A stretch of 32,000 nt of DNA from an uncultured archaeon (GCA_964373795.1 CAYJVY010000008.1:1-32000); one strand, 5' to 3'. Counted from the first letter of the stretch, positions 3,611-28,706 are shown. The notes: generated by a model not told the origin, from the letters alone. Program-made: numbers and translations.

Positions 3611-5146
3611 CTATGAATATTTTTCTAAAATGATTTGCTGGAACTCGAATGGTAAATTGTTTTTTGAATATGTTTCAGCTAAAAATAGTTTTCTTGAATT
3701 TTCTCCATAAATTTCGAATAATGGTTGGTCTTTTTTTACTTTTTGTCCTTCTTCTACTAATAATAGTACTCCTGCTTTTTGATCGTGGGGGGCTCCAGCA
3801 ATTCTAGCAATTGCTCCAAGTTCTTTTACTTTAATTCTACTAATTTCTCCTTCTTCAGTTGATTTAATTATTTTTTTAGATTTTGATAATTTTATTTCTT
3901 TGCTTGAAAAAATCTTTCCTCCTTGGGCTTTAATTATTTCCTTCATTTTTTTCAATGCTTGGCCATTTTTTAAAATTTTTTTTGCCAACTCTGTTCCTTT
4001 TCCTTTTTCTGTTTTTCCAACTAATTCAAATAATGCTCCCGCAAGCTCGCAACTTTTTTGAGCTAAATTATCAAATATTTTTCCTTCAAGTATTTCCATT
4101 ACATGTTTTGCTTCTAATACCGGGCCAAAAGCTTTTCCGCTTGGCTCTGTGCCATTAGTAATTAATGCTTCAACCTTTATTCCAAGTTTTTTTCCAACTT
4201 TAATAAATTTTTCAGCCATTTCTCTTGCTTTTTCTTTTGATTTAATTTTAACGTCAGGGCCTACTGGTAAATCAATTACAACGTATTTTGATCCAACTGA
4301 AGCTTTTTTTGCTAGCACTGATGCAACTACTTGTCCATCTGGATCAAGTGAAAGAGGATATTCTACTTTAATTATTTTGTCGTCAGCTGGAGCCAAATCA
4401 ACTGCTCCTCCCCAACAAATTACTGCTCCAACCTTTTTTGTTATTTTTTTTATTTGTTCAAAGCTTAAATTAACGTTTGTTAGTACTTCCATTGCATCAG
4501 CTGTTCCGGAACAAGAAGTAATGCTTCTAGAAGAAGTTTTAGGAATCATAAATCCTTGAGAGGAAATTATTGGAACTACAATCATTGTTGCTCTTCCATT
4601 TATTCCTCCAACGCTGTGCTTGTCTAAAACTTTTCCTTTTCCAAAATTAATTTTTTTGCCATTTTCAATTAATGCCTTAGTCATTGCAGTTGTTTCATCT
4701 AAATCAAATCCATAAATATAAACAGCAGTCATGAAAGAAGCTAATTCTATTTCACTAATCCTGTTTTCATTAACGTCTTTCACGATTTCTTGTAACTCTT
4801 GTTCTGAAAGTTTTTGATTATTTAATTTCTTTTTAATGTAATTAATGCTTTTAGGTTTTTCAACTGCTTGAACTTTAACTTGCTGTTTATTCAAGCAATT
4901 CAATAAATTGTTAACATCTTTAAGTAATCCAATTTCATTTTCTTTAACCATTGAATTAGTTACATCAGCTAAAGCCGTAATTCTTTTACCTGACTTGCTA
5001 TTTAAAACCTCTACTCTATCTAATGGCAGTATCCCTAATTGTTTTGCGTCAAGTTCATTCAAGATTACAATCAATTTTCCTGTTTCAATATCAAAACATT
5101 TAACACTCATTTCTTGAACATACTTTGCTTTTTCATTTACAATCAT
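3611..5146 (-). CDS. deoA: AMP phosphorylase (archaeal thymidine-phosphorylase-family enzyme with an N-terminal extension)
   Basis: 511 aa. The N-terminal DIETGKLIVILNELDAKQLG domain, DKHSVGG, and TSSRSITSCSGTAD match AMPpase-type nucleoside phosphorylases. GGTGA lies upstream of the ATG at 5146. Confidence 0.85.
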   Translation of the reverse strand: MIVNEKAKYVQEMSVKCFDIETGKLIVILNELDAKQLGILPLDRVEVLNSKSGKRITALADVTNSMVKENEIGLLKDVNNLLNCLNKQQVKVQAVEKPKSINYIKKKLNNQKLSEQELQEIVKDVNENRISEIELASFMTAVYIYGFDLDETTAMTKALIENGKKINFGKGKVLDKHSVGGINGRATMIVVPIISSQGFMIPKTSSRSITSCSGTADAMEVLTNVNLSFEQIKKITKKVGAVICWGGAVDLAPADDKIIKVEYPLSLDPDGQVVASVLAKKASVGSKYVVIDLPVGPDVKIKSKEKAREMAEKFIKVGKKLGIKVEALITNGTEPSGKAFGPVLEAKHVMEILEGKIFDNLAQKSCELAGALFELVGKTEKGKGTELAKKILKNGQALKKMKEIIKAQGGKIFSSKEIKLSKSKKIIKSTEEGEISRIKVKELGAIARIAGAPHDQKAGVLLLVEEGQKVKKDQPLFEIYGENSRKLFLAETYSKNNLPFEFQQIILEKYS

Positions 5147-8115: not shown

Positions 8116-8233
8116 GATTAGCAGCGTTTAGGATGCTCCAAGCAAAAACTCAGTGCAAACCTTTTCGCAGACAGGCTTAACTTCTGGGTTCGAGATGAGA
8201 CCAGGTGTTTCACTGTCGCTTTGACCGCTAATC
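8116..8233 (-). rRNA. rrf: 5S ribosomal RNA (about 118 nt), unlinked to 16S/23S
   Basis: The minus strand reads GATTAGCGGTCAAAGCGACAGTGAAACACCTGGTCTCATCTCGAACCCAGAAGTTAAGCCTGTCTGC...CGCTGCTAATC. The terminal helix GATTAGC/GCTAATC closes the molecule. The universal 5S block CGAACCCAGAAGTTAAGC is present. The region is a GC-rich island in an AT-rich spacer. Confidence 0.9.
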
Positions 8234-14713: not shown

Positions 14714-15511
14714 TTAAATCAATTCTTTTGCTTTAACTGTTTGAATTTGTTTTTCAAGTGCATCACTTATGTCTTTTTTTACTTGTTCAAACTCTGCGTA
14801 GTTACCCATTATAAGGGGCATTAAGTCTTTTTTCCAGTCTTTTCTTTTTTCTTCAATTTTTTTCAAAAATATGTTTTTTTCAAAAACTGTTTTATGTTTT
14901 CTGAACTTTTTTCCAAGTAAGCTGAAATCTATTTGAATGTTTTTGAATTTCAACAAAAACCATAAATCATAAACATCCCTTGCTTTTTTCCTGCTGTAAA
15001 TTGCCAAGATTTTTTCCAAGATGATTTCGTGTAAATCTATTGCAAAAACATGAAATGCTGGAATATCTGGGTAATTTGAGTATAGGAGCATTCTTTTTGG
15101 TTCGAGTAAAACTTTTTCCCGCAAACTTATATCTAGTCTAATAAAACACAAACTTTTTGGATTGCCATCAAAAAAAGGGCCTAAAAATTCTAGTCCAATA
15201 CTTAATTGGTTTTGGTATTTGTCAATGGATTTGATTTTGGCTTTGATGCCTGTTTGTCTGAACAAAAAAACCAGTTTTTCCAAACGCTTTTCAAAATTAA
15301 TGTTTTTTGAAAAAGAGAAATCCAAATCCTCACTAAAGCGGTTCAAACTATGCAGTTTATACAAACAAGTTCCGCCTTTAAAAACCAATTCTTTGCCGAC
15401 AACAGAGTAAATAAAGTAAAGAAGCAAATTTTGCAAGTAATCCTTTTCAATTTGTGTTTCGTTTAATCTTTTCAGTCCAGCTAAAGCTCTTAATTCTTCT
15501 TTACCAATCAA
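14714..15511 (-). CDS. abiEii: AbiEii/AbiGii-family nucleotidyltransferase toxin (DUF1814), type IV toxin-antitoxin / abortive infection
   Basis: FKGGTCLYKL and RFSEDLDFS nucleotidyltransferase motifs. Directly abuts the upstream AbiEi-like gene. Confidence 0.75.
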   Translation of the reverse strand: MIGKEELRALAGLKRLNETQIEKDYLQNLLLYFIYSVVGKELVFKGGTCLYKLHSLNRFSEDLDFSFSKNINFEKRLEKLVFLFRQTGIKAKIKSIDKYQNQLSIGLEFLGPFFDGNPKSLCFIRLDISLREKVLLEPKRMLLYSNYPDIPAFHVFAIDLHEIILEKILAIYSRKKARDVYDLWFLLKFKNIQIDFSLLGKKFRKHKTVFEKNIFLKKIEEKRKDWKKDLMPLIMGNYAEFEQVKKDISDALEKQIQTVKAKELI

Positions 15512-16108
15512 TTAATTCACCTTTTCCAAGAACTTTTTTGCTTTTTTCCGCCATGGTTTTCTAATTATTTTCATTAAGTATTTTGAAATAAGCTTTATCT
15601 CAAGTTCATCTCTATTTTTGGAAATTATTTCCAGTAACTCTGATTCTGAAACAAGGTTGAAAGCAAAAGAGTCAGCTATGGCTTTTTCTTTGCTTGCCAC
15701 AAAAATTTCCATTCCTTTGTAATGTACTTTGTTAAACCCAAATAGGTTTTCTGTTTTGCTTTTAATAAAACGAATTTTTGCGTTTGCGAATTCTATTTCT
15801 TTTTTCTTTTTGGATCTTGTTGTAAAAACATCAATTGTTGAGGGCAGTTGTTCAGTTAAATTGTGATATTGTAGAGCTGACCATCCTGAAATATAGCTAG
15901 GCCAAAGAATCCTGGAAGCAACAAGCAAAGCATCCTTATAAACAGTGTATTTGTCTCTCTCAATTCGGAAAATCAATTTGGCATTGCTTAGCCTGTACAA
16001 TAACAAGTTAACATAGTTTTTCTTTTTTTCCAAAATATCCAAAACTATTTTGGAGGTAAAAACTGCATACTTCTGCAGTTCATTCAATACGTATATTCGA
16101 TTAACCAT
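15512..16108 (-). CDS. abiEi: AbiEi-family antitoxin / transcriptional regulator (N-terminal wHTH)
   Basis: Size of about 200 aa and an N-terminal wHTH-like segment. The conserved pairing places it immediately upstream of the DUF1814 gene. Confidence 0.65.
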   Translation of the reverse strand: MVNRIYVLNELQKYAVFTSKIVLDILEKKKNYVNLLLYRLSNAKLIFRIERDKYTVYKDALLVASRILWPSYISGWSALQYHNLTEQLPSTIDVFTTRSKKKKEIEFANAKIRFIKSKTENLFGFNKVHYKGMEIFVASKEKAIADSFAFNLVSESELLEIISKNRDELEIKLISKYLMKIIRKPWRKKAKKFLEKVN

Positions 16109-16362: not shown

Positions 16363-17316
16363 TTATTTCAATAAGTAATTCAAATCCAGTTCACGTAAAG
16401 AGTAATTTTTTAGGTTCATTTCTTTAACCATTAATTGAGTGAATTTTTTTGGAGAATGAATTCCTTTTTCTGTTACAATGCTTTTCAAGTAGTGTGAAGG
16501 AGTTAAATCAAATGCTGGGTTTGAAATTGAAAGCTTTGAAGGTTTTTCAAGCCAAACCTCTTTCCAAGAACGTTCTTCGATTACTGTTTTTTTGCCGTAA
16601 AATGTTTGAGCATCGAATTTTTCTGAAGAGGTTGCAACAAAATGAGGTATGTTAAATTGTTTTGCTAGAAAAGAAATTTGTTGAGTGCCAATTTTGTTAA
16701 TTAATTCTCCTTTAACAGTTATTGCATCTGCTCCTGAAAAAAAATAATTTATTTTTGGAAGTATTTGGAAAACATTTGAGTCAACAATTTGAGTTACAGG
16801 AATTCCGTGGCTTGAAAGTTCTTTGGCTGTAATTCTTCCTTGAAATAGAGGCCTGGTTTCAGTGCAGTAAACTCTTTCAATTTTTCCTGAATCAAATGCT
16901 TTGCAGAAAATGTTTGAAACATTTTTCGAATGACAATGAGTTAAAAGAATTGAATTTTTTTTAATTATTTTTGCTCCGTTTAAAGCAATTTGTTTTGCTG
17001 CATTTTTTCTTTTCTCTAAGTATTCTGTGCAAAATTTTTGTAAATCTTTTTTTAATTCGTTTAAGGATTGAAATTCTTTTTTTGTCTGCCAATAAATTTG
17101 TCTTAAAGCTGATTGCATTCCAGGCTCGGTTGGGCGGGAAAAAAATAATGCTTTTAAGTGTTGTTTTAATTCTTGTTTAAATCCTGTAAAAGTTGTTTGA
17201 TTTGAGTTTTGAATGGATTGTTGAATTGCTTGAACTGCTTGGTTGCGGATATTGGAAGCGCCTTGAATTTTTAATTCTTTAATTTTTTGAACTGTTTCTT
17301 GAATTATTTTATTCAT
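16363..17316 (-). CDS. eIF-2B alpha/beta/delta-family protein, probable ribose-1,5-bisphosphate isomerase
   Basis: LTHCHS (Cys) and GADAITVKGELINKIGT (Asp) motifs, about 320 aa. An AMP phosphorylase lies in the same window. The track start 17325 is TTG; the ATG is at 17316. Confidence 0.75.
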   Translation of the reverse strand: MNKIIQETVQKIKELKIQGASNIRNQAVQAIQQSIQNSNQTTFTGFKQELKQHLKALFFSRPTEPGMQSALRQIYWQTKKEFQSLNELKKDLQKFCTEYLEKRKNAAKQIALNGAKIIKKNSILLTHCHSKNVSNIFCKAFDSGKIERVYCTETRPLFQGRITAKELSSHGIPVTQIVDSNVFQILPKINYFFSGADAITVKGELINKIGTQQISFLAKQFNIPHFVATSSEKFDAQTFYGKKTVIEERSWKEVWLEKPSKLSISNPAFDLTPSHYLKSIVTEKGIHSPKKFTQLMVKEMNLKNYSLRELDLNYLLK

Positions 17317-17425
17317 GGAAATCAATTCAATTTCAACAAATCGTTTAAAAATGTTTTCAATTCAATTATTATTAGATTAAAGTAATATATTATTGTTTTT
17401 ATTAACTTTTTTAGGTGATAGGGGT

Positions 17426-18867: not shown

Positions 18868-19311
18868 ATGATTTTTACTGTTAGAACAACTGTTGGACAA
18901 GAATCCTTAGTTGTAGATATTCTTGGAAACAGAATTAAAAAAGAGGAATTAAATGTTTACTCAATTGCAGTTATTCCTGGATTGAAAGGATATATTTTAA
19001 TTGAAGCAGATAATGAAGTAACAGTTAGAAGAGCTATTACTGGAACTCCTCATATTAAAGGAAGAGGAGTTGTTGGAACAGGAGAAGTAAAAATAGAGGA
19101 ATTAACTTCTTTGCTTGAATCAAAGCCTTTAATGAAAACCTTGAAAGAAGGATTAAAGGTTGAAATAATTCAAGGCCCATTTAAAGGAGAGAAAGCAAAA
19201 ATTATTCGCGTGAACGACTCAAAAGAAGAAGTGCAAGTAGAATTATTGGAAGCAGCAGTAAAAATTCCTGTAACCTTAAAAGCTGAACACATTGTAGTAA
19301 AAAATGAGTGA
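18868..19311 (+). CDS. spt5: Transcription elongation factor Spt5 (NusG)
   Basis: [15 protein letters not shown] start and the KOW motif [15 protein letters not shown]. The track start 18859 is GTG; the ATG is at 18868. Confidence 0.9.
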
Positions 19312-19316
19312 AATTT

Positions 19317-19919
19317 ATGCCTGACATTGATTTATTAGTTGAAGGAGGAAAAGCAAATGCAGGCCCTCCTCTTGGACCAAGTCTTGCTCCTTTAGGAGTA
19401 AACATTGGACAAATAGTTAGCAAAATAAATGAAAAAACAAAAGAATTTAATGGAATGAAGGTTCCAGTTAAAGTAAAAGTTGACGTTAAAACAAAAGCCT
19501 TTGAAATAGAAGTTGGAAGCCCTCCGACAAGTGCTTTAATTAAAAAAGAATTAAAAATTGAAAAAGGATCTGGCACTCCAAAAACAGGAATAGTTGGAAA
19601 TCTTTCATTAGATCAAGTTAAAAAAATTGCTGAAGGAAAACTAGAAAACCTTTCCTCAACTGATTTACAAAAAGCAATGCATGAAGTAATTGGAACAGCT
19701 AATTCAATGGGAGTAACAATTGAAGGCAAACGAGGAAAAATTTGGATGGCTGAATCAAGAGGAGAAAAAATCGAAGAAGACTTTGAAGAAGTAGTTGAAA
19801 AGCCAAAACCAAAAGAAACAGCTGTGGAAAAAACAGAAGAAAAAGTAAAGGAAACAGGAAAAGAAAAACCTTCAAAAGAATCCTCAAAAGAAAAATCAGG
19901 AAAAGAAAAGAAAAAATAA
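19317..19919 (+). CDS. rpl11: 50S ribosomal protein L11 with a C-terminal Lys/Glu-rich extension of about 50 aa
   Basis: [20 protein letters not shown] and the [12 protein letters not shown]11 core. Residues from about nt 19758 onward are low-complexity EKPKPKE...[10 protein letters not shown]. Confidence 0.9.
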
Positions 19920-19921
19920 AA

Positions 19922-20176
19922 CTAATTTTTAATTTTTGTTACATCAAAGAGCTCTAAAATAATTTTTTTCAATTCTTTTTCATTTACTTTAAGTTTTTTA
20001 GAAAAATAGTTCAAATGCTTTAACAGTTCTTGTTTAATGAATTCAGGTGAAAATAGTTTAAGTTCATTATTAATTAAAAGCATTTTTCTTGTTGTGGAAT
20101 CTTTTAATAAAGCTGCAATAATAATGTTTGCATCTATTACTATAATTTGTTTTTTCAAAAGATCACAGCCATTCAA
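19922..20176 (-). CDS. vapC: PIN-domain (VapC-like) protein, apparently C-terminally truncated (84 aa)
   Basis: IIVIDANIIIAAL (first catalytic Asp) and SPEFIKQEL (second acidic residue) are present. The distal acidic residues of a full PIN domain of about 130 aa are absent. ATGA overlap with the upstream antitoxin. Confidence 0.6.
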   Translation of the reverse strand: MNGCDLLKKQIIVIDANIIIAALLKDSTTRKMLLINNELKLFSPEFIKQELLKHLNYFSKKLKVNEKELKKIILELFDVTKIKN

Positions 20177-20415
20177 ACATTTAATCCATGTTTTTTAGCT
20201 ATTTCTTTATTTATTCTTCTACCTAGTTCTATGGCGTCTTCTTCTGTTAATTCGCTATTTTTTGTTAATTCATCAAATTTTTTTAATACTCTTAATCTTT
20301 TTACACGCTCTTCTAAAAAACGTCGCGTTTCTTCCGACCAATTAACCTCTCTAAACTGCTTTAATTCATTTTTCAATTTTGTTGGAACAGATAAAGTTAA
20401 GGTAACTTTATTCAT
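20173..20415 (-). CDS. vapB: VapB-type antitoxin (archaeal PIN-associated family)
   Basis: 80 aa with the SELTEEDAIELGRRINKEI C-terminal block common to archaeal PIN partners. Overlaps the PIN gene by 4 nt. Confidence 0.6.
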   Translation of the reverse strand: MNKVTLTLSVPTKLKNELKQFREVNWSEETRRFLEERVKRLRVLKKFDELTKNSELTEEDAIELGRRINKEIAKKHGLNV

Positions 20416-20577: not shown

Positions 20578-21780
20578 TTACTTATCCTCTTTCACTATTT
20601 CTCCAGGCAAAGTAGTTGTTCTCGGAGAAAGTTTTACTCCTGGATAAAAAGAGGAATTAATTCCTATTTTGCAGTTGTCTCCAAAAATTGCTCCAAGTTT
20701 TTTTCTTCCAGAATCAATTTTCTCTCCTTTCAAAATTGATTTAACGTTCGCATGATCGTGCCTTAAGTTTGCAGTAATTGTTCCAGCGCCTAAATTACAG
20801 TTTTCTCCAATCACTGAGTCTCCTACATAGCTTAAATGAGGAATCTTTGTTCCATTTTCAATAACAGAATTTTTTACTTCAACTGCTTGTCCGATCTTGC
20901 AACCATTCATTATTGATGTGTTTCCTCTAATAAAACAATTTGGGCCAATTTCACAGTTCTCTCCAATGAAAACATTGCCTTCAATATAAGTTCCGCTTTT
21001 CAGTGTACTGCCTTTTCCTAAACTAATTTTTCCTTTAATATGCACTCCTTCCTCAATAATTCCTTCAATTTTGTTTTCCTTTAAACTTCCAACAAAAAAC
21101 TCGTTTGCCTTAAGTAAATCCCATGGATATGCAATTGGGAACCAGTAATCTAAAACTTTTTCCACGAAAACCTTTTCTTTTTCTGTAACTAAAAATTTTA
21201 AGTAATCAACTAATTCAAATTCTTTTCTTTCCGAAAGCTGTAATTTGTGTTTGAAAATTTTTTTGTTTAAAACATACAAGCCAGTGCCAACTAACTTGCT
21301 TTTCGGGTTTAAAGGTTTTTCCACGAAACCTTTCAACAAATTTTTCTCAGCTTCGATTACGCCGAATTTTTCTGCGTCCTGCCTTTCTGCAGCAAGAACA
21401 CAAAACTCTTTTTTCACGCAGTTTTTCAAATCTTTTGCTGAATAAAAGTCATCTCCATTCATTACAATAAATTTGTCCTTCAATTTTTTTTCGCAGAGAT
21501 GTAAAGCTTGTCCAGTGCCTTGAGGATTATTTTGTTCAATAAAAGAAATTTTTAATTTCAGCTTCTCTGCAACTTTTTTTGTATGTTCAATTAATTGTGC
21601 TTTCTCGAATCCAACTACAAGAATTATTTCTTCCAGTTCTTTTCCAGTTGCTTGCTTGATTTGCTCCAAATTGTGTTCAAGAATTGTTTTTCCTGCAACT
21701 TTCAGTAAAGGTTTTGGCTTGTTTACAGTTAAAGGCCAGGTTCTAGTGCTTTTTCCTGCGCATAATAAAACAAATTGCAT
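20578..21780 (-). CDS. glmU: Bifunctional sugar-1-phosphate nucleotidylyltransferase / acetyltransferase (archaeal GlmU-like; N-terminal NTP-transferase plus left-handed beta-helix)
   Basis: LLCAGKSTR (GxGxR-type) N-terminal motif and C-terminal hexapeptide repeats (IGENCEIGPN, IGENCNLGAG, FGDNCKIGIN). Confidence 0.8.
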   Translation of the reverse strand: MQFVLLCAGKSTRTWPLTVNKPKPLLKVAGKTILEHNLEQIKQATGKELEEIILVVGFEKAQLIEHTKKVAEKLKLKISFIEQNNPQGTGQALHLCEKKLKDKFIVMNGDDFYSAKDLKNCVKKEFCVLAAERQDAEKFGVIEAEKNLLKGFVEKPLNPKSKLVGTGLYVLNKKIFKHKLQLSERKEFELVDYLKFLVTEKEKVFVEKVLDYWFPIAYPWDLLKANEFFVGSLKENKIEGIIEEGVHIKGKISLGKGSTLKSGTYIEGNVFIGENCEIGPNCFIRGNTSIMNGCKIGQAVEVKNSVIENGTKIPHLSYVGDSVIGENCNLGAGTITANLRHDHANVKSILKGEKIDSGRKKLGAIFGDNCKIGINSSFYPGVKLSPRTTTLPGEIVKEDK

Positions 21781-21783
21781 TTT

Positions 21784-22548
21784 TCATTCCCCAATTTTTT
21801 TTAAATATTTAATTATTTGTTCGTGAATTAATCCATTGCTTGCAATTAAGTCTCTTGAAGTTGTTTGCCATTCTTTTCCTTGCCAGTTAGTTACTTTTCC
21901 TCCGGCTTCTCTTACAAGTATGGTTCCAGCAGCAATATCGTATAACTCGTAGTCTCCTCCGAATCTTGCATCCATTCTTCCAATAGCAACATTAGCTAAA
22001 TCTAATGCCGAACTTCTAGTTATTTTAATTCGCCTAGATATTTGAATTATTTCAATGTTTTTTTCTAGGTCTCTTCGCCTTGATGACAAACCTATAGTGG
22101 ATTCATCTAATATTTTGTATTTTGAAACATGGATTGGTTTTTCATTGAGATATGCTCCTTTTCCTTTTTCTGCATAGAAAAGTTCTTTTCTGCAAGGATC
22201 TAAAGTCACTCCCACAATGACTTCTGAATTTTTAATTAAAGCAATTGTAATGCAAAAATATGCAAACCCTCTTTCAAAGTTTCCAGTGCCATCTAGTGGG
22301 TCAATAGTCCATAAGTAATCTGAATTTTTTGTCTGTTTTCCAAATTCTTCTCCGTAAAAAGAGTGCTCTGGAAATTCAGCTGAAATTATTTCAATTATTT
22401 TTTTCTCTGCTTCTTTGTCTGCTTGTGTTACTGTAGAGCCATCTGCTTTTTTTTCTGAAACAAATTCTTTATCAAAATACCTCATTGCAATTTTTCCAGC
22501 CGCTTTTACAGCCTTTATTGCAATTTTCAATTCTTTTGATTTATTCAT
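21784..22548 (-). CDS. suhB: Inositol monophosphatase family protein (archaeal IMPase/FBPase-type)
   Basis: FYGEE, WTIDPLDGTGNF and the C-terminal YDIAAG motifs. Confidence 0.85.
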   Translation of the reverse strand: MNKSKELKIAIKAVKAAGKIAMRYFDKEFVSEKKADGSTVTQADKEAEKKIIEIISAEFPEHSFYGEEFGKQTKNSDYLWTIDPLDGTGNFERGFAYFCITIALIKNSEVIVGVTLDPCRKELFYAEKGKGAYLNEKPIHVSKYKILDESTIGLSSRRRDLEKNIEIIQISRRIKITRSSALDLANVAIGRMDARFGGDYELYDIAAGTILVREAGGKVTNWQGKEWQTTSRDLIASNGLIHEQIIKYLKKIGE

Positions 22549-23168
22549 TTTAAGCCTCTTCTTCTTTGATTTATCCTTGATTGAGATTTATTTCTTTTTC
22601 TAATTCTTCTTTCTTTTTTTTGTTTTAATGCAATTCCATATGATGTTCCTTTTGTCAGAGTAAGACCTTCATCAATATTTATTCTTCTTCTATCAATTTT
22701 TAGTTTAAACCGTAAATGGTTTTCCACATCGTATACACAGTCTTCTTTGTATTCCCCAAATAAATTAAATCTTGTTTCACTTGAAGCATTTAATCCTTTT
22801 CTTTTCAATTCTTCTACTATTGAATTTACTTGCCCAACCACTCCAATTTGATTCATTGGAATAACAACTATTCTTTCTTGTAATTCTTTTTCAGCAAATC
22901 CAACTAGTTTTAATAATTCTGGTAATTTACTTAATCCATCTATGGAAGTTGGAAGCAAGATAACTAGAACGCTTTTTTCTCTTCCTTTTACTTTTTGAAT
23001 TTGTTTGCCCCAATGCATTTTAAGTGCTTGAACGCCTTGAAAAAATCTTTTTCTATGTGCTTTGTTAGTGAACAAATCTTTTTCCAAGTTTGGACGCAGT
23101 GTGCTTTGCAGTCGAACGTAATACTCATACAATGGGTGAATTAATACATTTATTTCTTCTACATCCAT
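22545..23168 (-). CDS. Uncharacterised paralog P1 (globular alpha/beta-like domain plus polybasic tail)
   Basis: Shares MxxxxxNVLIHPLY, WGKQI, SVLVIL, FAEKEL, RIVVIP, TRFNLFGEYKEDCV, HLR and RRRINI blocks with the next ORFs. Tail is KQKKERRIRKRNKSQSRINQRRRGLK. ATGA overlap with suhB. Confidence 0.8.
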   Translation of the reverse strand: MDVEEINVLIHPLYEYYVRLQSTLRPNLEKDLFTNKAHRKRFFQGVQALKMHWGKQIQKVKGREKSVLVILLPTSIDGLSKLPELLKLVGFAEKELQERIVVIPMNQIGVVGQVNSIVEELKRKGLNASSETRFNLFGEYKEDCVYDVENHLRFKLKIDRRRINIDEGLTLTKGTSYGIALKQKKERRIRKRNKSQSRINQRRRGLK

Positions 23169-23174
23169 TTTTTT

Positions 23175-23771
23175 TCACACTCTTCTAGGAGTATTTCTTT
23201 TTCCAGGCCTTATTTTTGGAGAATCTCTTTTTTTTCTATTAGTGTGTGAAGGTCTTTTGTATCCAGTATATCCTTTTCCACGTCTTTTAGAACTTTCTGG
23301 AAAGCTTAGCTGTTTTTCTATTTCTATTTCTTCCTTTTCCAGTGTTCTTAATGCGCCGCAAACAAGTGGAACACAGTATTCTTTGTGTTCTCCGAATACC
23401 TTAAACCTTGTTTCGTTTGAGACTTCAAATTTTTTTGATAATTCATGAAATGCTTTAAACATTTGTTGTTCAGCTGTGAGTCCTGGAAAACCAAAAACTA
23501 TAACTAATTTGTCTCCTAATTCTTTTCTTGCAAAATCAATTAATTTTTTTAATTCTCTTTCTGCATTATTAGTTGGTTGGGAATCTGAAAGCAATGGATG
23601 TAAGATTATGAATGCAGAATTAGGAGTTCTTGTAACTTCGCGCATTCTTTGCATCCAACGTCCTGTAAGAATTTTTACTCCTTGAAGCTGTCTTCCAAAT
23701 TCTTGTGGGTCTTGCACTCCAAGTAATTCATCCAATGGATGAACTAATACATTTACTTCTCTGAGTTGCAT
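23175..23771 (-). CDS. Uncharacterised paralog P2
   Basis: MQLREVNVLVHPLDEL, NSAFIILHP, FARKEL, LVIVFG and TRFKVFGEHKEYCV. Tail is SKRRGKGYTGYKRPSHTNRKKRDSPKIRPGKRNTPRRV. I chose the start at ATG 23771 so that Met-x5-NVL matches the paralogs; an alternative ATG is at 23780. Confidence 0.8.
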   Translation of the reverse strand: MQLREVNVLVHPLDELLGVQDPQEFGRQLQGVKILTGRWMQRMREVTRTPNSAFIILHPLLSDSQPTNNAERELKKLIDFARKELGDKLVIVFGFPGLTAEQQMFKAFHELSKKFEVSNETRFKVFGEHKEYCVPLVCGALRTLEKEEIEIEKQLSFPESSKRRGKGYTGYKRPSHTNRKKRDSPKIRPGKRNTPRRV

Positions 23772-23789
23772 AAAAATCATTAATTAATT

Positions 23790-24404
23790 TCAAATTCTTG
23801 TTCTTGGTTTGTTTTTTCTTCCTGAACGAAGCTTTGTTTTGCCGACAATTTTTCTTCTTGTTCTTGGTTTGTAATATTCTTCATAGTTTGCTCTTTCAGA
23901 TGCATGACTTAGAGGACTCTTTATTTCGATTCTTTTACGATCTATATGTAGATTATATTTTGGTGCAAAGAGACGCAAATGTTCTGACACTGATGTAACA
24001 CATCTATGTTCATGTTCACCAAAAAGAACAAAACGTGTATTTGGTCCAATATTCACTCTATACTCTTGCATCATTGTGAGCATTAGTTGTGTCTGCTCCC
24101 ATATTGATTCCCTAGGCGGCACAACTATTAGTCTACTTACTAATTCCCTTTTTGCAAACGCGATTAGTTTTTCAACATCTTTTGGATCATCTTTTTTTAT
24201 GCGTGGGGTAAAAATTACAAGAACACTATTTGGATTGCCTTTTATTTGTAAAATTTTTTTTCCCCAATAGAATTTCAAAAACTTTGCTCCATGCAAACCT
24301 TTTGTTACGCGATCCACTTTCTTTCTTCTAGCTTTGGGTATACGGTGTAATTCTAAATAGTCATACAATGGATGAACTAAAACATTCAATTCTTCAACTT
24401 CCAT
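23790..24404 (-). CDS. Uncharacterised paralog P3
   Basis: MEVEELNVLVHPLYDY, WGKKILQIKG, NSVLVIF, FAKREL, LIVVPP, TRFVLFGEHEHRCV, HLR and RKRIEI. Tail is YKPRTRRKIVGKTKLRSGRKNKPRTRI. The track start 24410 is TTG; the ATG is at 24404. Confidence 0.8.
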   Translation of the reverse strand: MEVEELNVLVHPLYDYLELHRIPKARRKKVDRVTKGLHGAKFLKFYWGKKILQIKGNPNSVLVIFTPRIKKDDPKDVEKLIAFAKRELVSRLIVVPPRESIWEQTQLMLTMMQEYRVNIGPNTRFVLFGEHEHRCVTSVSEHLRLFAPKYNLHIDRKRIEIKSPLSHASERANYEEYYKPRTRRKIVGKTKLRSGRKNKPRTRI

Positions 24405-24753
24405 TTTCAAAACCTTCTCGGAGTGTTTCTTCTTCCTGATCTAGTTTTAGGTTTTCCAAACTCTTTTCTTCTTTCAACTGGTTTTTTTTGTATCTAGTGT
24501 AGCCTGTTTTCCTTTTTGTATCGTAAAGGGAAAGACCGAGTCTTTTGTCAATTTCGACTCTTTTCATTCCTAGTTCCATATCTGGGTTTGTTGCAACTTC
24601 TTTAATTCTCCGCCCCCAAAGACTTCTAAGAATTTTTGAGGTATTGAATTCTCTGTCAGAACTTTCATGAACCTCCTCAAATAATGCATAGAATGGATGT
24701 CTTAGTAAGTCATACAGCAGATGAACTAAAACATTGACTTGTGTTAACTCCAT
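24394..24753 (-). CDS. Uncharacterised paralog P4, an internally deleted version (head and tail retained, core missing)
   Basis: MELTQVNVLVHLLYDL, WGRRIKEV..NP and then directly MKRVEIDKRL and GYTRYKK (matching RKRIEIK of P3 and GYTGYKRP of P2). There is no FGE..CV block. Overlaps the P3 start by 11 nt. Confidence 0.6.
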   Translation of the reverse strand: MELTQVNVLVHLLYDLLRHPFYALFEEVHESSDREFNTSKILRSLWGRRIKEVATNPDMELGMKRVEIDKRLGLSLYDTKRKTGYTRYKKNQLKEEKSLENLKLDQEEETLREGFENGS

Positions 24754-24759
24754 AAATAA

Positions 24760-26115
24760 TCAAATACCAATTTCTTTCTTAATTTCTTCTGCGATTTTGT
24801 TTGCATATTCTTCTATTTGTTTTTGGTTTTCTCCTTCAATCATTATTCTTGCAAGATTTTCTGTTCCACTGTAACGAATAAGTGTTCTTCCATTGCCTGA
24901 AAGCTTTTCCTCGACTTCTTGAATTGCTTTTTTCACTGAAGGCATTTCATTGAATTCAATTTTTTCTTTCACGCACACGTTCACTAGAACTTGTGGAAAT
25001 GATTTCATTATTGTTGCAAGCTTTGATAGTTTTTCTTTTTTTTCTTTCATTATTTTCAATAACTGTAAAGCAGTAATTATTCCATCTCCTGTAGTTGAAT
25101 ACTTGGAAAAAATTATGTGCCCTGATTGTTCTCCTCCTAAAACTATTTTTCTTTTACGCATTTCATCTATTACGTATTTGTCTCCAACAGCTGTTTTGAA
25201 TATTTTTACTCCGAGTTTTTGCATTGCTTTATCAAATCCTAAATTAGTCATTACTGTTACTACAACTGAGTTTTCATCTAACCTGTTTTTTTCCATTAAA
25301 TTATTTACACAAATAGCCATTATGTGGTCTCCGTCCACAAAGTTTCCTTTTTCATCTGAAACAATTACTCTATCTGCATCTCCGTCTAAAGCAATTCCTA
25401 AATCTGCTTTTTCTTCTAAAACTTTTTTCTGCATTTCTTGTGGATGCGTTGCTCCGCAATTCAAGTTAATGTTTTGTCCATCTGGTTTGCTGTTCATTAC
25501 AATTACTTTTGCTCCTAGTTCTGAAAAAATTTTTGGAGCTACATCGTATGCTGCTCCGTTAGCGCAATCTAAGACTATTTTCATTCCTTCTAATGACTCT
25601 GATTTAATTGAGGATTTTGCAAACTCTATATACCTGCCTTTTGCATCGTCTATTCTATATGCTTTTCCAATTTTTGTTGCAGGAGCATAAACTGATTTCA
25701 TTTTTTCTTCTAAAACTAGTTTTTCTATTTGTTCTTCAACTTTTTCATCTAATTTAAATCCATCCTCATTGAAGATTTTTATTCCATTGTCTTGAGAAGG
25801 ATTATGTGAAGCAGAGATAACAATTCCTGCTTCTGCATTCAATGACTTAGTTAAATGAGCTATTGCAGGAGTAGGCATTGGTCCTACAAGTAAAACGTTT
25901 GCTCCCATTGAAACAATTCCACTCGTAAGCGCGGATTCAATCATATAACCACTTAAACGAGTGTCTTTTCCTATAACAATTTTTGGAGTTCCATTTCCTG
26001 AATGTTCTTTAAAATAATTTGCTGCTGCTTTTCCAATCAAAAGTGCAAGCTCTGGAACCATTGGATAAACATTTGCAGTAGCCCTAATTCCATCTGTTCC
26101 AAACAATTTGCCCAT
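24760..26115 (-). CDS. glmM: Phosphoglucosamine mutase
   Basis: LFGTDGIRA, the phosphoserine loop SASHNP, metal loop LDGDADR, and GEQSGH. ATG at 26115 is preceded by GGTGA; the track start 26127 is TTG. Confidence 0.9.
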   Translation of the reverse strand: MGKLFGTDGIRATANVYPMVPELALLIGKAAANYFKEHSGNGTPKIVIGKDTRLSGYMIESALTSGIVSMGANVLLVGPMPTPAIAHLTKSLNAEAGIVISASHNPSQDNGIKIFNEDGFKLDEKVEEQIEKLVLEEKMKSVYAPATKIGKAYRIDDAKGRYIEFAKSSIKSESLEGMKIVLDCANGAAYDVAPKIFSELGAKVIVMNSKPDGQNINLNCGATHPQEMQKKVLEEKADLGIALDGDADRVIVSDEKGNFVDGDHIMAICVNNLMEKNRLDENSVVVTVMTNLGFDKAMQKLGVKIFKTAVGDKYVIDEMRKRKIVLGGEQSGHIIFSKYSTTGDGIITALQLLKIMKEKKEKLSKLATIMKSFPQVLVNVCVKEKIEFNEMPSVKKAIQEVEEKLSGNGRTLIRYSGTENLARIMIEGENQKQIEEYANKIAEEIKKEIGI

Positions 26116-26120
26116 TTTTT

Positions 26121-26768
26121 TCACCAACTCAAAATTTGATCAATATTAATTTCTTTCAAAGAATTCACAATTAAGTTTGCTTCTTTCAAATCCTCTTCTG
26201 TAGTGTAATTACTCTTTAATGCAATGCATTTCATTCCAGCTCTTCTAGCAGCTTTGACTCCATTAAATGTGTCTTCGATTACTACACAGTTTTTTGGTTT
26301 TTCATTTAAATCCTTTGCTGTTTTCAGAAAAATGTCTGGAGCTGGTTTGGAATTTGCAACATTTTCTGCGGAGTTTGTTATTTCAAAATATTTTGCAATA
26401 TTTAATTTATTTAAAATTATTTTAATTTCTTTAACTGAAGAAGAAGTCGCTAAACCAATTTTTGTATTTCTTTTTTTGAAAGCTTTAACTAACTCAATTG
26501 CTCCATCAATTGGTTTCAATTCTTTTTTCAGCATTTCAAAATAGTTTTCCCTTCTCTCAGCTATTAATTTTTCAATGCTTGGAGGTAAATTATATTTTTC
26601 TTTTAAATGTGTCCAAACTTCTTTTGCTCCTCTTCCCATGCCATAAATATAATCTTCTTCATCTAATTTTGCATTGAACCTTTTTAACACAATATTATCT
26701 GCTTTGTCATGTACTTTTTCTGTATCAACTATTACTCCGTCCATGTCAAAAATAATTGCTTTAATCAT
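26121..26768 (-). CDS. HAD-IA hydrolase, beta-phosphoglucomutase / sugar-phosphatase-like
   Basis: IIFDMDGVIVDTE, ATSS, KPAPDIF and EDTFNGVKAARRAGM motifs. ATG at 26768 has GGTGA 7 nt upstream. Confidence 0.8.
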   Translation of the reverse strand: MIKAIIFDMDGVIVDTEKVHDKADNIVLKRFNAKLDEEDYIYGMGRGAKEVWTHLKEKYNLPPSIEKLIAERRENYFEMLKKELKPIDGAIELVKAFKKRNTKIGLATSSSVKEIKIILNKLNIAKYFEITNSAENVANSKPAPDIFLKTAKDLNEKPKNCVVIEDTFNGVKAARRAGMKCIALKSNYTTEEDLKEANLIVNSLKEINIDQILSW

Positions 26769-26784
26769 TTGTTTTTCACCAATG

Positions 26785-28548
26785 TCATTTAACTGTAACA
26801 CTTTTTGCAAGGTTGCGTGGGTAATCTGGATTGATGCCTTTTCTAATGCTTACAAAATATGCAAGTAATTGAATTGGAATTAAATTCATTAATGGAAAGA
26901 ATTTTTCTGTTGCAGGGACTTGAATGAATTCTCCAATTCCAGGATTTTCAGATCCAATGCAAATTACTTTTGCTCCGCGAGATTTCACTGTATTTGCATT
27001 GCTTAAAGTGTCATTTTTTGTTTCATCTTCTGAAAGCAATACAATGCAAGGAATTCCTTCCTCAATTAGCGCTAGAGGCCCATGCTTTATTTCTCCTCCA
27101 GGAAAACCAATTACTGGAAGATAGCAAACTTCTTGCAATTTAATTGCAGCTTCAAGCGCAATAGGGTAATTCATTCCTCTACCCAAAACAAACAATTTTT
27201 CCTTGGATTTAATTTTTTCCGCCAGGGTTTGAATTTGTTCAATGAAAGAATTGTTTGAAAGCAATTTACTTAAATCGTTTAAAGCTTTTTCTAATTCTTT
27301 GCTGTTTTTTTCAAAAGAGTTTGAAAGCAAAAACGCAAGCACGTAAGCAATAATTATTTGTCCAGTAGTTGATTTAGTTGAAGCAACTGCTTTTTCAATT
27401 CCTGCACAAACAGGAATTACTATATTCGATTTGCGATGCATTGAAGTGTTTTCAGCGTTAATTATTGAAACAATTTTTGCCCCGCGTGATTTTGCAATTT
27501 CTATTGCTTCAAGAGTATCAGCTGTTTCTCCTGATTGAGAAACAGCAATTACAATTGTTTTTTCATTAACGAATTTTGCAAAGTTTTCGAATTCAGATGA
27601 AACGCATGCAATGCATTCCTTTCCTCCAAATCTTGAAAAAATATATTGAGCAAGTAAAGCAACTTTGTGTGCAGTGCCTGCTCCAATAATGAAAACTTTT
27701 TCTGCTTTTTTAATTATTTCAGCTGCTTTAAGTGCTTCTTGTTTGCTTTCTTTAAAAGCTTGAAAAACAGAAAACTTTTGATCCATTATTTCTTTTAACA
27801 TTAAATGTTCAAACACGTTTTCTTCACTTTTATTGTTTCTGTTTATTTCTTCAATTCTTTTTTTTACTTTAACTTCTTTTTTTGAATTTAAGTCAATAAT
27901 TTTGATTTTGGAATTCATTGAAGTCATTTCATTGTCCTCTAAATAAATTGCTTTTCTCACTTTAAGTGGAAATGCTTGAATATCTGATGCTATAAAGAAT
28001 TGTTTTTTATTTATTCCTATAATCAATGGTGAACCATTTTTTACTCCAATGATTTCATTAAAATCTTCATGCATTGCAACGAAAGCATATCTTCCTTCAA
28101 GTTTTTTTACAGCTTCAAAAACTGCTTCTTCAAAGTTTTTTTTCTGGCAAAAAAATTCAATTAATTGAGGAATGACCTCTGAATCTGTTTCAGTTTCAAA
28201 AATTATTCCTTTTCCTTGCAAGAAACTCTTTATTTCTTGAAAGTTTTCAATTATTCCATTATGCACTACAGAAATTTTTTTATTTAAAGAAAAAATTGGA
28301 TGAGTGTTTTCCAAGCAAACCTTTCCATGTGTTGCCCACCTAGTATGCCCAATTGCTTCAAGGCTTGGAATTTTTTTTTCAAGCAAAGCTGAACTAATTT
28401 TTCCAACTTTTTTCACTGTTTCTAAGGAATTGTGTTTTTTGAAGGCAATTCCCCAAGAATCGTATCCTCTATATTCAAGTTTTTTTAATCCTTCAAAAAC
28501 TAGTTGAACTGCTTGAGTAGAGTTAATTGCTCCAATTATTCCACACAT
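26785..28548 (-). CDS. glmS: Glutamine--fructose-6-phosphate aminotransferase (isomerising)
   Basis: The obligatory Met-Cys start MCGIIGA (ATG at 28548), HTRWATHG, two SIS domains (SQSGETADT), and the C-terminal DYPRNLAKSVTVK. Confidence 0.95.
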   Translation of the reverse strand: MCGIIGAINSTQAVQLVFEGLKKLEYRGYDSWGIAFKKHNSLETVKKVGKISSALLEKKIPSLEAIGHTRWATHGKVCLENTHPIFSLNKKISVVHNGIIENFQEIKSFLQGKGIIFETETDSEVIPQLIEFFCQKKNFEEAVFEAVKKLEGRYAFVAMHEDFNEIIGVKNGSPLIIGINKKQFFIASDIQAFPLKVRKAIYLEDNEMTSMNSKIKIIDLNSKKEVKVKKRIEEINRNNKSEENVFEHLMLKEIMDQKFSVFQAFKESKQEALKAAEIIKKAEKVFIIGAGTAHKVALLAQYIFSRFGGKECIACVSSEFENFAKFVNEKTIVIAVSQSGETADTLEAIEIAKSRGAKIVSIINAENTSMHRKSNIVIPVCAGIEKAVASTKSTTGQIIIAYVLAFLLSNSFEKNSKELEKALNDLSKLLSNNSFIEQIQTLAEKIKSKEKLFVLGRGMNYPIALEAAIKLQEVCYLPVIGFPGGEIKHGPLALIEEGIPCIVLLSEDETKNDTLSNANTVKSRGAKVICIGSENPGIGEFIQVPATEKFFPLMNLIPIQLLAYFVSIRKGINPDYPRNLAKSVTVK

Positions 28549-28706
28549 GATAAAAAAGTACTGCAAGGCAGATATTTAAAGACTTATAAATAAAACTTCA
28601 ATCCGTTATAAATTTCTTTATAACTATTCAAACTTATATTTAAAAGAATTTCCTTTTAACAATATGTTTATATTATAAGATTTTTTTTACTAGTATAAAG
28701 TTTTGT

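Follow-up and report, generated by a model that had tools for sequence, protein, structure and literature searches.

What are the four short open reading frames (ORFs) that stand in tandem inside an amino-sugar operon of an uncultured archaeon, and does their position say what they do? The stretch of DNA that we analyzed (GCA_964373795.1 CAYJVY010000008.1:1-32000; its full 32,000 nucleotides are hereafter called the window) carries on its minus strand a glmS-HAD-glmM / suhB-glmU operon for UDP-GlcNAc (uridine diphosphate N-acetylglucosamine), and the four ORFs, P1 to P4, lie between glmM and suhB. An initial annotation, made from the sequence of the window, described them as four diverged paralogs of an unrecognised family with polybasic tails, and it noted motif-level resemblances to LmbE/PIG-L deacetylases and isochorismatase-type hydrolases. 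Our data indicate that the array is best read as three intact paralogs and one remnant, rather than as four equivalent paralogs, and that they belong to a real, conserved and unnamed family found mainly in small-genome archaea. In addition, profile tests and gene contexts lead away from amino-sugar chemistry; tentatively, we lean towards a role in housekeeping information processing.

The tandem array

All four minus-strand ORFs are present where the initial annotation had placed them, and each junction that it described was confirmed exactly. On the minus strand, the glmM stop codon is followed after 6 nucleotides by the ATG of P4, P4 and P3 overlap by 11 nucleotides, P3 and P2 are separated by 18 nucleotides (9 if P2 starts at the upstream ATG at 23780, as in the public gene call), P2 and P1 are separated by 6 nucleotides, and P1 overlaps the IMPase/SuhB-like gene via ATGA. 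The array has the same guanine-plus-cytosine (GC) content as its flanks. Such tight spacing is compatible with co-transcription, and the array is probably transcribed together with the glm operon; the earlier statement that it must be was too strong, since archaeal promoters can sit within upstream genes. The ORFs and their parts are as follows (HMM, hidden Markov model; BLASTP and HMM matches are given as E values).

22545-23168, minus strand: P1, intact family member, 207 amino acids; BLASTP to P3 1e-31, family HMM 1.5e-40; keeps IHP, ELQER and FGEYKEDCV
22548-22673, minus strand: P1 basic tail, residues 166-207; last 35 residues with 15 Lys/Arg vs 1 Asp/Glu
23175-23771, minus strand: P2, intact family member, 198 amino acids (201 from the ATG at 23780); BLASTP to P1 8e-17, family HMM 1.5e-36
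23178-23306, minus strand: P2 basic tail, residues 156-198; last 35 residues with 14 Lys/Arg vs 1 Asp/Glu
23790-24404, minus strand: P3, intact family member, 204 amino acids, the protein used for the structural model; public gene call identical
23793-23909, minus strand: P3 Arg/Lys-rich C-terminal tail, residues 166-204, predicted to be disordered; last 35 residues with 14 Lys/Arg vs 3 Asp/Glu
23910-24404, minus strand: P3 core domain, residues 1-165, from the predicted secondary structure and its confidence (strand 1, helical insert, then strand 2, helix, strand 3, helix, strand 4, helix, strand 5)
23997-24023, minus strand: P3 FGEHEHRCV codons (Gly129, Glu130, Cys135, Val136); equivalents at 22734-22760 in P1 and 23370-23396 in P2
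24369-24377, minus strand: P3 Val-His-Pro codons (His11-Pro12, end of strand 1); equivalents at 23133-23141 in P1 and 23736-23744 in P2
24394-24753, minus strand: P4, probable decayed copy, 119 amino acids, with the N-terminal 58 residues of the family and remnants; BLASTP to P3 (residues 1-58) 5e-08, family HMM 1.2e-08

Pairwise BLASTP comparisons gave 35% identity over the full length for P1 and P3 (E=1e-31) and 32% for P1 and P2 (E=8e-17), a similarity far above chance that marks these three as true paralogs. The blocks listed in the initial annotation (NVL[IV]HPL, WG..I, NS..[VI]I, FA..EL, FGE[HY]....CV and the basic tail) all occur in P1-P3, with small deviations in P2 (WMQRM, ALR and KEEIEI). 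P2 keeps VHP and FGEHKEYCV and carries a Lys where the family has a near-invariant Arg (ELGDK).

P4 is where the picture of four homologous paralogs fails. Its match to P3 is confined to residues 1-58 (E=5e-08), it reads VHL where the family has VHP, and it possesses neither the NS..I strand nor the FGE....CV block nor a basic tail; the net charge of its last 35 residues is -2, vs +11 to +14 in P1-P3. Two remnants can still be discerned: ELGMK, left from the conserved ELG.R block, and a marginal trace of the tail start (KRKTGYTRYKK vs RRGKGYTGYKR, E=0.05). Since the FGE..CV core and the basic tail are absent, we read P4 as an internally deleted and probably decayed copy. That the array as a whole consists of non-functional relics or annotation artefacts is scarcely credible, and such a reading is plausible only for the truncated P4 with its lost core, since P1-P3 keep the conserved family residues, at least 83 other protein clusters share their architecture, and an independent sample carries P3 and P4 unchanged.

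In a neighbour-joining tree, although a rough one, P1, P2 and P3 form one clade, and the triplication and the subsequent decay of P4 would therefore have taken place within the lineage of the window genome. The independent sample just mentioned (ERR4904391, L002) contains the same array with four single-nucleotide polymorphisms (SNPs) in 1,665 nucleotides, none of them synonymous. Three fall in P2 (23423, 23449 and 23455; K106R, F108S and V117I, clustered at residues 106-117), and the fourth, at 24990, changes V380I in glmM. The set of SNPs in P2 is too small for interpretation.

The family and its predicted fold

When 1.84 billion cluster representatives were searched exhaustively with an HMMER profile, 87 proteins passed the cut-off of E<=1e-3, of which 4 are the window's own and 83 represent other clusters with the same architecture. 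Nearly all are 135-282 amino acids long, mostly ~200; one 369-residue member has a large insert, and in one 541-residue member an unknown N-terminal region precedes a tail-less domain. Word-indexed (k-mer) searches recovered far less: P3 as a query found P3 itself only, and a profile of 85 sequences found 20 proteins, all unnamed and none with Pfam domains. A metagenome scan added 2 loci; of the genome-collection scans, one was empty and one returned only an already known locus. A scan of viral contigs (IMG/VR) found no relatives.

Conservation was counted in an alignment of 85 sequences, using P3 numbering. Gly129 and Cys135 are invariant (85/85), His11 and Pro12 are present in all 80 ungapped sequences, and Arg91 (80/85), Glu130 (77/85) and Val136 (77/85) are nearly so. 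The family consensus can be written [LV]L[VI]HP[FLH][YFW] ... W/Y-G..I ... NP...hhI.P ... FA...LG.Rh ... FGE[YW]xxxCV ... L ... LS[LVI], followed by the basic tail, and aromatic residues line the conserved motifs. In about 85% of the members, the last 35 residues contain 9-18 Lys/Arg; one clade is tail-less and ends directly after the core, with all core motifs kept. In the window, the last 35 residues of P1, P2 and P3 carry net charges of +14, +13 and +11, which are the top three of 38 ORFs, the next being +9. The basic tails are therefore a property of the P1-P3 proteins and not the product of a bias across the genome or proteome. The polybasic tail noted in the initial annotation thus proves to be a conserved family trait.

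Searches of named families returned nothing that would place the four ORFs. Neither Pfam (2025 copy) nor NCBIfam 20 gave a significant match for them (best E=0.025 and 0.029, respectively), no Pfam or NCBIfam family recurred among the 85 members even at E<=10, sequence and profile searches of the PDB gave nothing significant, and PADLOC had no match for P1-P3 or for the proteins P0005 and P0080 (the latter is the 541-residue member). Isolated weak matches were taken as chance, being non-significant or limited to a single member: DUF2102 (0.025), Peptidase_S51 (0.13), Cmr2_N (6e-4, one member only) and, in the PDB, mammalian sulfotransferases (0.03-0.25, non-significant). In public sources, members of the family are named only "hypothetical protein", and a literature search found general papers on hypothetical families of small-genome DPANN (Diapherotrites, Parvarchaeota, Aenigmarchaeota, Nanoarchaeota and Nanohaloarchaea) archaea and none describing this one. 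Unannotated lineage-specific families are abundant in that group (PMC9258230, PMC8204110).

An AlphaFold2 model of P3, built from the 85-sequence alignment, reached a mean predicted local distance difference test (pLDDT) score of 86.1 and a predicted template modelling (TM) score of 0.80, with most of the core above a pLDDT of 94. In order, the model shows strand 1 (residues 2-10), then a helical insert (14-55), strand 2 (60-65), a helix (76-91), strand 3 (92-95), a helix (101-114), strand 4 (118-129), a helix (132-150) and strand 5 (159-162); the tail (166-204) has a pLDDT of 52-69, as expected of a disordered segment. Strand 1 begins at residue 2, and the model has no N-terminal signal sequence. 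Alternating beta-alpha units, a parallel sheet and flanking helices, which define the doubly wound alpha/beta class, are all seen in the model. Members of the family are thus predicted to consist of a Rossmann-like alpha/beta core of ~160 residues followed by a disordered Arg/Lys-rich tail of 40-60 residues. In the model, strand 1 ends with His-Pro and strand 4 with Gly-Glu, the next helix starts with Cys-Val, and Arg91 precedes strand 3.

Two Foldseek searches of the PDB returned no match below E=1e-3. Generic Rossmann-like modules made up the best hits (probabilities up to 0.98, TM 0.30-0.48, 8-15% identity), among them an FNR-type NAD(P)-binding domain, HAD, CARF, SDR, vWA, PanC and ArgG; a search of BFVD likewise gave nothing below E=1e-3 and generic Rossmann-like matches again. 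The generic domains (FNR-type 2qtl, HAD 6cgk, CARF 3qyf, HUP-class PanC, and ArgG) share with the family the alternation of beta and alpha elements and five parallel strands, but none of them has the VHP or FGE..CV motif, the basic tail or the helical insert of 40 residues that follows strand 1. A sheet order of 3-2-1-4-5 is suggested only by the types of domain among the Foldseek matches; in such a sheet, His11, Glu130 and Cys135 would line a single classical ligand crevice. What is new is therefore a family outside Pfam, NCBIfam, PADLOC and the PDB that has no close structural relative, in a fold class that is itself common. In this, as in the existence of homologs elsewhere that share its motifs, the suggestion of an unrecognised family has held up well.

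Gene contexts and possible function

For family members elsewhere, we recovered eight other independent contexts, listed here in gene order with X for a family member.

eIF2beta, DUF424, eIF1A, X, Rio1 (its start overlaps the X stop), KH/Pno1-like, TopoVI
PriS, GINS51, X, eIF2alpha, PAC2, X, DUF87; in a related genome, an X-X tandem after PAC2, giving three copies
NUDIX, Dph2, X; eIF2gamma, S6e and aIF5B nearby
Lrp, TopA, a 178-amino-acid ORF, X, NFACT RNA-binding half (4-nucleotide overlap); L020 1528-7409, on a 581-kb archaeal contig
Lrp, X, TopA
X, a 195-amino-acid ORF, FtsZ
NIF3, then a strand change, X, P-type ATPase
the fused 541-amino-acid member beside GyrI-like, methyltransferase and NUDIX genes

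No glm gene occurs in any of these eight contexts; therefore, the linkage to UDP-GlcNAc genes is specific to the window genome. Genes for ribosome-interacting proteins recur instead (eIF1A, Rio1, eIF2alpha, Dph2 and NFACT), as do genes for replication and DNA topology, and in several genomes the family gene is single-copy and set in a housekeeping operon. The member beside NFACT is the closest outgroup to P1-P3.

Duplication with divergence, which the initial annotation had read from the array, recurs in other lineages. Some low-GC archaea have two or three copies flanking eIF2alpha-PAC2, of which a single copy follows GINS51 and one or two follow PAC2 (L013 4690-8565; L006 8001-11199). These two loci share the GINS51-adjacent copy as a syntenic ortholog, and the tandem pair in L013 represents a duplication independent of that of P1-P3; recurrent duplication is therefore a trait of the family.

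Several of the contexts have features of their own. On the 581-kb contig, an intein with a LAGLIDADG domain lies within the TopA gene, and the gene directly after X codes for an NFACT/Rqc2-like protein of which only the C-terminal RNA-binding half (267 amino acids) is present. The 541-residue P0080 (L019 1752-3377) has an N-terminal region of ~380 residues with a weak HEAT-repeat signal and a Cys-rich segment, and its neighbours (GyrI-like, methyltransferase, NUDIX and SemiSWEET) are unlike those of the other archaeal contexts.

With these observations in hand, we tentatively favour a reading, possible though held well short of confidence, that combines a Cys/His/Glu thiol or metal site with tethering through the basic tail to RNA, the ribosome or DNA, in the service of housekeeping information processing. 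Folds of this kind usually bind their ligand at the C-terminal ends of the central strands, which is where the His, Glu and Cys residues would stand, either as a thiol catalytic center or as a metal site. Through its tail, the domain would be anchored to a polyanion, with rRNA, the ribosome or another nucleic acid as the likeliest partner. The gene would thus serve housekeeping information processing rather than amino-sugar metabolism, and its presence in the glmS-HAD-glmM / suhB-glmU operon would reflect an accident of local insertion with later tandem duplication and no functional tie to the genes around it. That the tails point to a polyanionic partner had been proposed before; the conserved basic tail indeed suggests such a partner.

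There is a precedent for this kind of architecture. ArfB/ICT1, SmpB and many ribosomal proteins have a basic disordered C-terminal tail that docks on rRNA. Like them, the family joins a compact domain to an unstructured Arg/Lys-rich tail of 40-60 residues, and its neighbours often encode ribosome-interacting proteins (eIF1A, Rio1, eIF2alpha, NFACT and Dph2); however, it is related to ArfB/ICT1 and SmpB in neither sequence nor fold and has no GGQ, so that the analogy is one of working alike and not of membership. A stronger version, in which the family represents a new class of nucleic-acid- or ribosome-tethered Cys/His enzymes, e.g., a hydrolase or modifier acting on RNA, tRNA or the nascent chain, we consider rather unlikely. 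If true, it would add an enzyme class that is broadly conserved in small-genome archaea, carries a polybasic docking tail and diversifies by recurrent tandem duplication. Small-genome symbiotic archaea keep few genes, and a conserved, repeatedly duplicated family is probably important to them; as a soluble protein of ~200 residues with obvious point mutants, it offers a concrete target in archaeal "dark matter."

Several points weigh against the tethered-site reading. The search for homologs found none of known function. The tail-less clade exists, and the tail is therefore not essential to the function of the core. The neighbourhood of translation-related genes is suggestive; it comes from only ~8 independent contexts, in gene-dense genomes that commonly hold genes of this kind, and is not statistically significant, and replication and topology neighbours are equally frequent, which makes DNA as possible a partner as RNA. 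A flavodoxin-like sheet order of 2-1-3-4-5 would put His11 farther from Cys135. Finally, translational coupling to the glm genes in the window genome could still mark a local functional link.

The alternative that survives best is a non-enzymatic protein that binds nucleic acid or the ribosome (an assembly factor, a chaperone, a chromatin-like protein or a ribosomal accessory protein), in which the His, Glu and Cys residues would serve to bind a structural metal or simply to keep the fold stable, and the functional work would fall to the tail. Conservation of the tail in most of the family, its disorder and very basic composition, which resemble those of ribosomal-protein extensions, the presence of ribosome biogenesis and initiation genes among the neighbours and the failure to find any resemblance to a catalytic family all fit such a protein. 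Nevertheless, where an invariant Cys is joined at strand ends by near-invariant His and Glu, an active or ligand site is more to be expected than a scaffold, and the tail-less clade keeps all core motifs, so that the core itself is functional. On this balance we regard the binding protein as possible, if doubtful.

A fast-diversifying protein of interaction or conflict (an episymbiont effector, a defence component or a selfish module), with the Arg-rich tail as a targeting or membrane-crossing peptide, would account for the lineage-specific tandem expansions in at least two lineages, for the decay of one array member and for the three nonsynonymous SNPs clustered in P2, where the two samples show no synonymous difference. 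Yet only three SNPs are involved, the core residues are strictly conserved, and the gene is single-copy within housekeeping operons in several genomes; moreover, we found no signal peptide, no PADLOC match and no relative among viral contigs or in BFVD. Such a role is improbable.

The remaining candidate is the one suggested by the operon itself, namely a hydrolase or deacetylase of the LmbE/PIG-L or isochorismatase type acting on intermediates of the UDP-GlcNAc pathway. The tight packing of the genes between glmM and suhB/glmU, the aromatic residues that line the conserved motifs and the GT4 and GT2 glycosyltransferases within 15 kb speak for it, as do the two motif resemblances. With isochorismatases (PncA, PF00857), the family shares an alpha/beta fold, a strand 1 that ends in a polar residue of catalytic type, and a Cys-Val that starts a helix six residues after the Gly closing a central strand; with LmbE/PIG-L proteins (MshB, TT1542, PF02585), it shares a Rossmann-like fold and hhhhHP directly after strand 1.

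Both resemblances were examined with profiles. The nicotinamidase profile comprised four sequences from PDB alignments and, as a fifth, the E. coli PncA sequence used as bait, whose matches to nicotinamidases in the PDB reached E=7e-42; for the deacetylases, the sequence of M. tuberculosis MshB, verified as identical to PDB 1q74_A, served as the query. The hhalign probability against nicotinamidases was 3.7%, in the wrong register and with the two cysteines unpaired, and that against MshB was 0.07%. In an hmmscan of the 85 members, neither PF00857 nor PF02585 was matched at E<=10, and structures of isochorismatases/nicotinamidases and LmbE proteins were absent from the Foldseek PDB top 50 for the P3 model. 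The Asp-Lys-Cys triad of isochorismatases is also absent: the Cys is invariant, but the strand-1 position is His (80/80) where Asp would be expected, and the only conserved basic residue is Arg91, at a place not equivalent to that of the Lys. As for LmbE/PIG-L, only H-P is conserved, the next two positions being F/L/H and then Y/F/W, so that the Asp-Asp of AHPDD is missing; in the 85-sequence alignment, no other His column reaches 50% and there is no HxxH. Since the profile tests failed and the catalytic and zinc residues are missing, both resemblances are therefore most simply read as coincidences at the level of motifs. Together with the lack of glm genes in the other contexts, this removes the ground for the idea that either chemistry fits the operon, and we hold an amino-sugar enzyme to be highly improbable. 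The case illustrates how an operon neighbourhood in one genome can mislead functional inference.

Other genes of the window

The window belongs to a low-GC (~31%) archaeal contig, and a public contig is 99.99% identical to it; domains of the flanking genes were taken from the public gene calls of that near-identical contig. The genes around the array are as follows.

20578-21780, minus strand: GlmU-like nucleotidyltransferase with left-handed beta-helix (Pfam NTP_transferase and Hexapep/LbH)
21784-22548, minus strand: IMPase/SuhB-like (Pfam Inositol_P)
24760-26127, minus strand: GlmM/PGM-like (Pfam PGM_PMM_I-IV)
26121-26810, minus strand: HAD phosphatase/mutase-like (Pfam HAD_2)
26785-28566, minus strand: GlmS-like (Pfam GATase_6/7 and SIS)

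The plus strand encodes FtsZ, SecE, Spt5 and L11. L1, L10 and L12 are on the same contig, with L10 and L12 past the end of the window. Other genes in the window encode an archaeal Lon protease, an S-layer protein, enzymes of pyrimidine biosynthesis and the two glycosyltransferases mentioned above. By gene content, the window is certainly archaeal; its placement among small-genome DPANN archaea we infer from the low GC content, the compact operons and genes of adenosine monophosphate (AMP) salvage. The latter, which are typical of archaeal AMP salvage, encode AMP-phosphorylase-like (Glycos_transf_3) and IF-2B/ribose-1,5-bisphosphate-isomerase-like proteins (3611-5146 and 16363-17325, both minus strand).

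Some further features were seen along the way. Between the L11 gene and the GlmU-like gene lies a toxin-antitoxin pair with ribbon-helix-helix (RHH_12) and PIN_2 domains (19922-20415, minus strand), and L11 itself (19308-19919, plus strand) has a Lys/Glu-rich C-terminal extension of ~45 residues outside the usual L11 domains. Within the string of pyrimidine-biosynthesis genes, we found a gene for an AbiEii nucleotidyltransferase toxin (14714-15511, minus strand), preceded by that for an unannotated 198-residue protein with a basic C-terminus (15512-16108, minus strand), which is probably its AbiEi-type partner. A 5S rRNA gene (8116-8232, minus strand) stands alone, with no 16S or 23S gene nearby.

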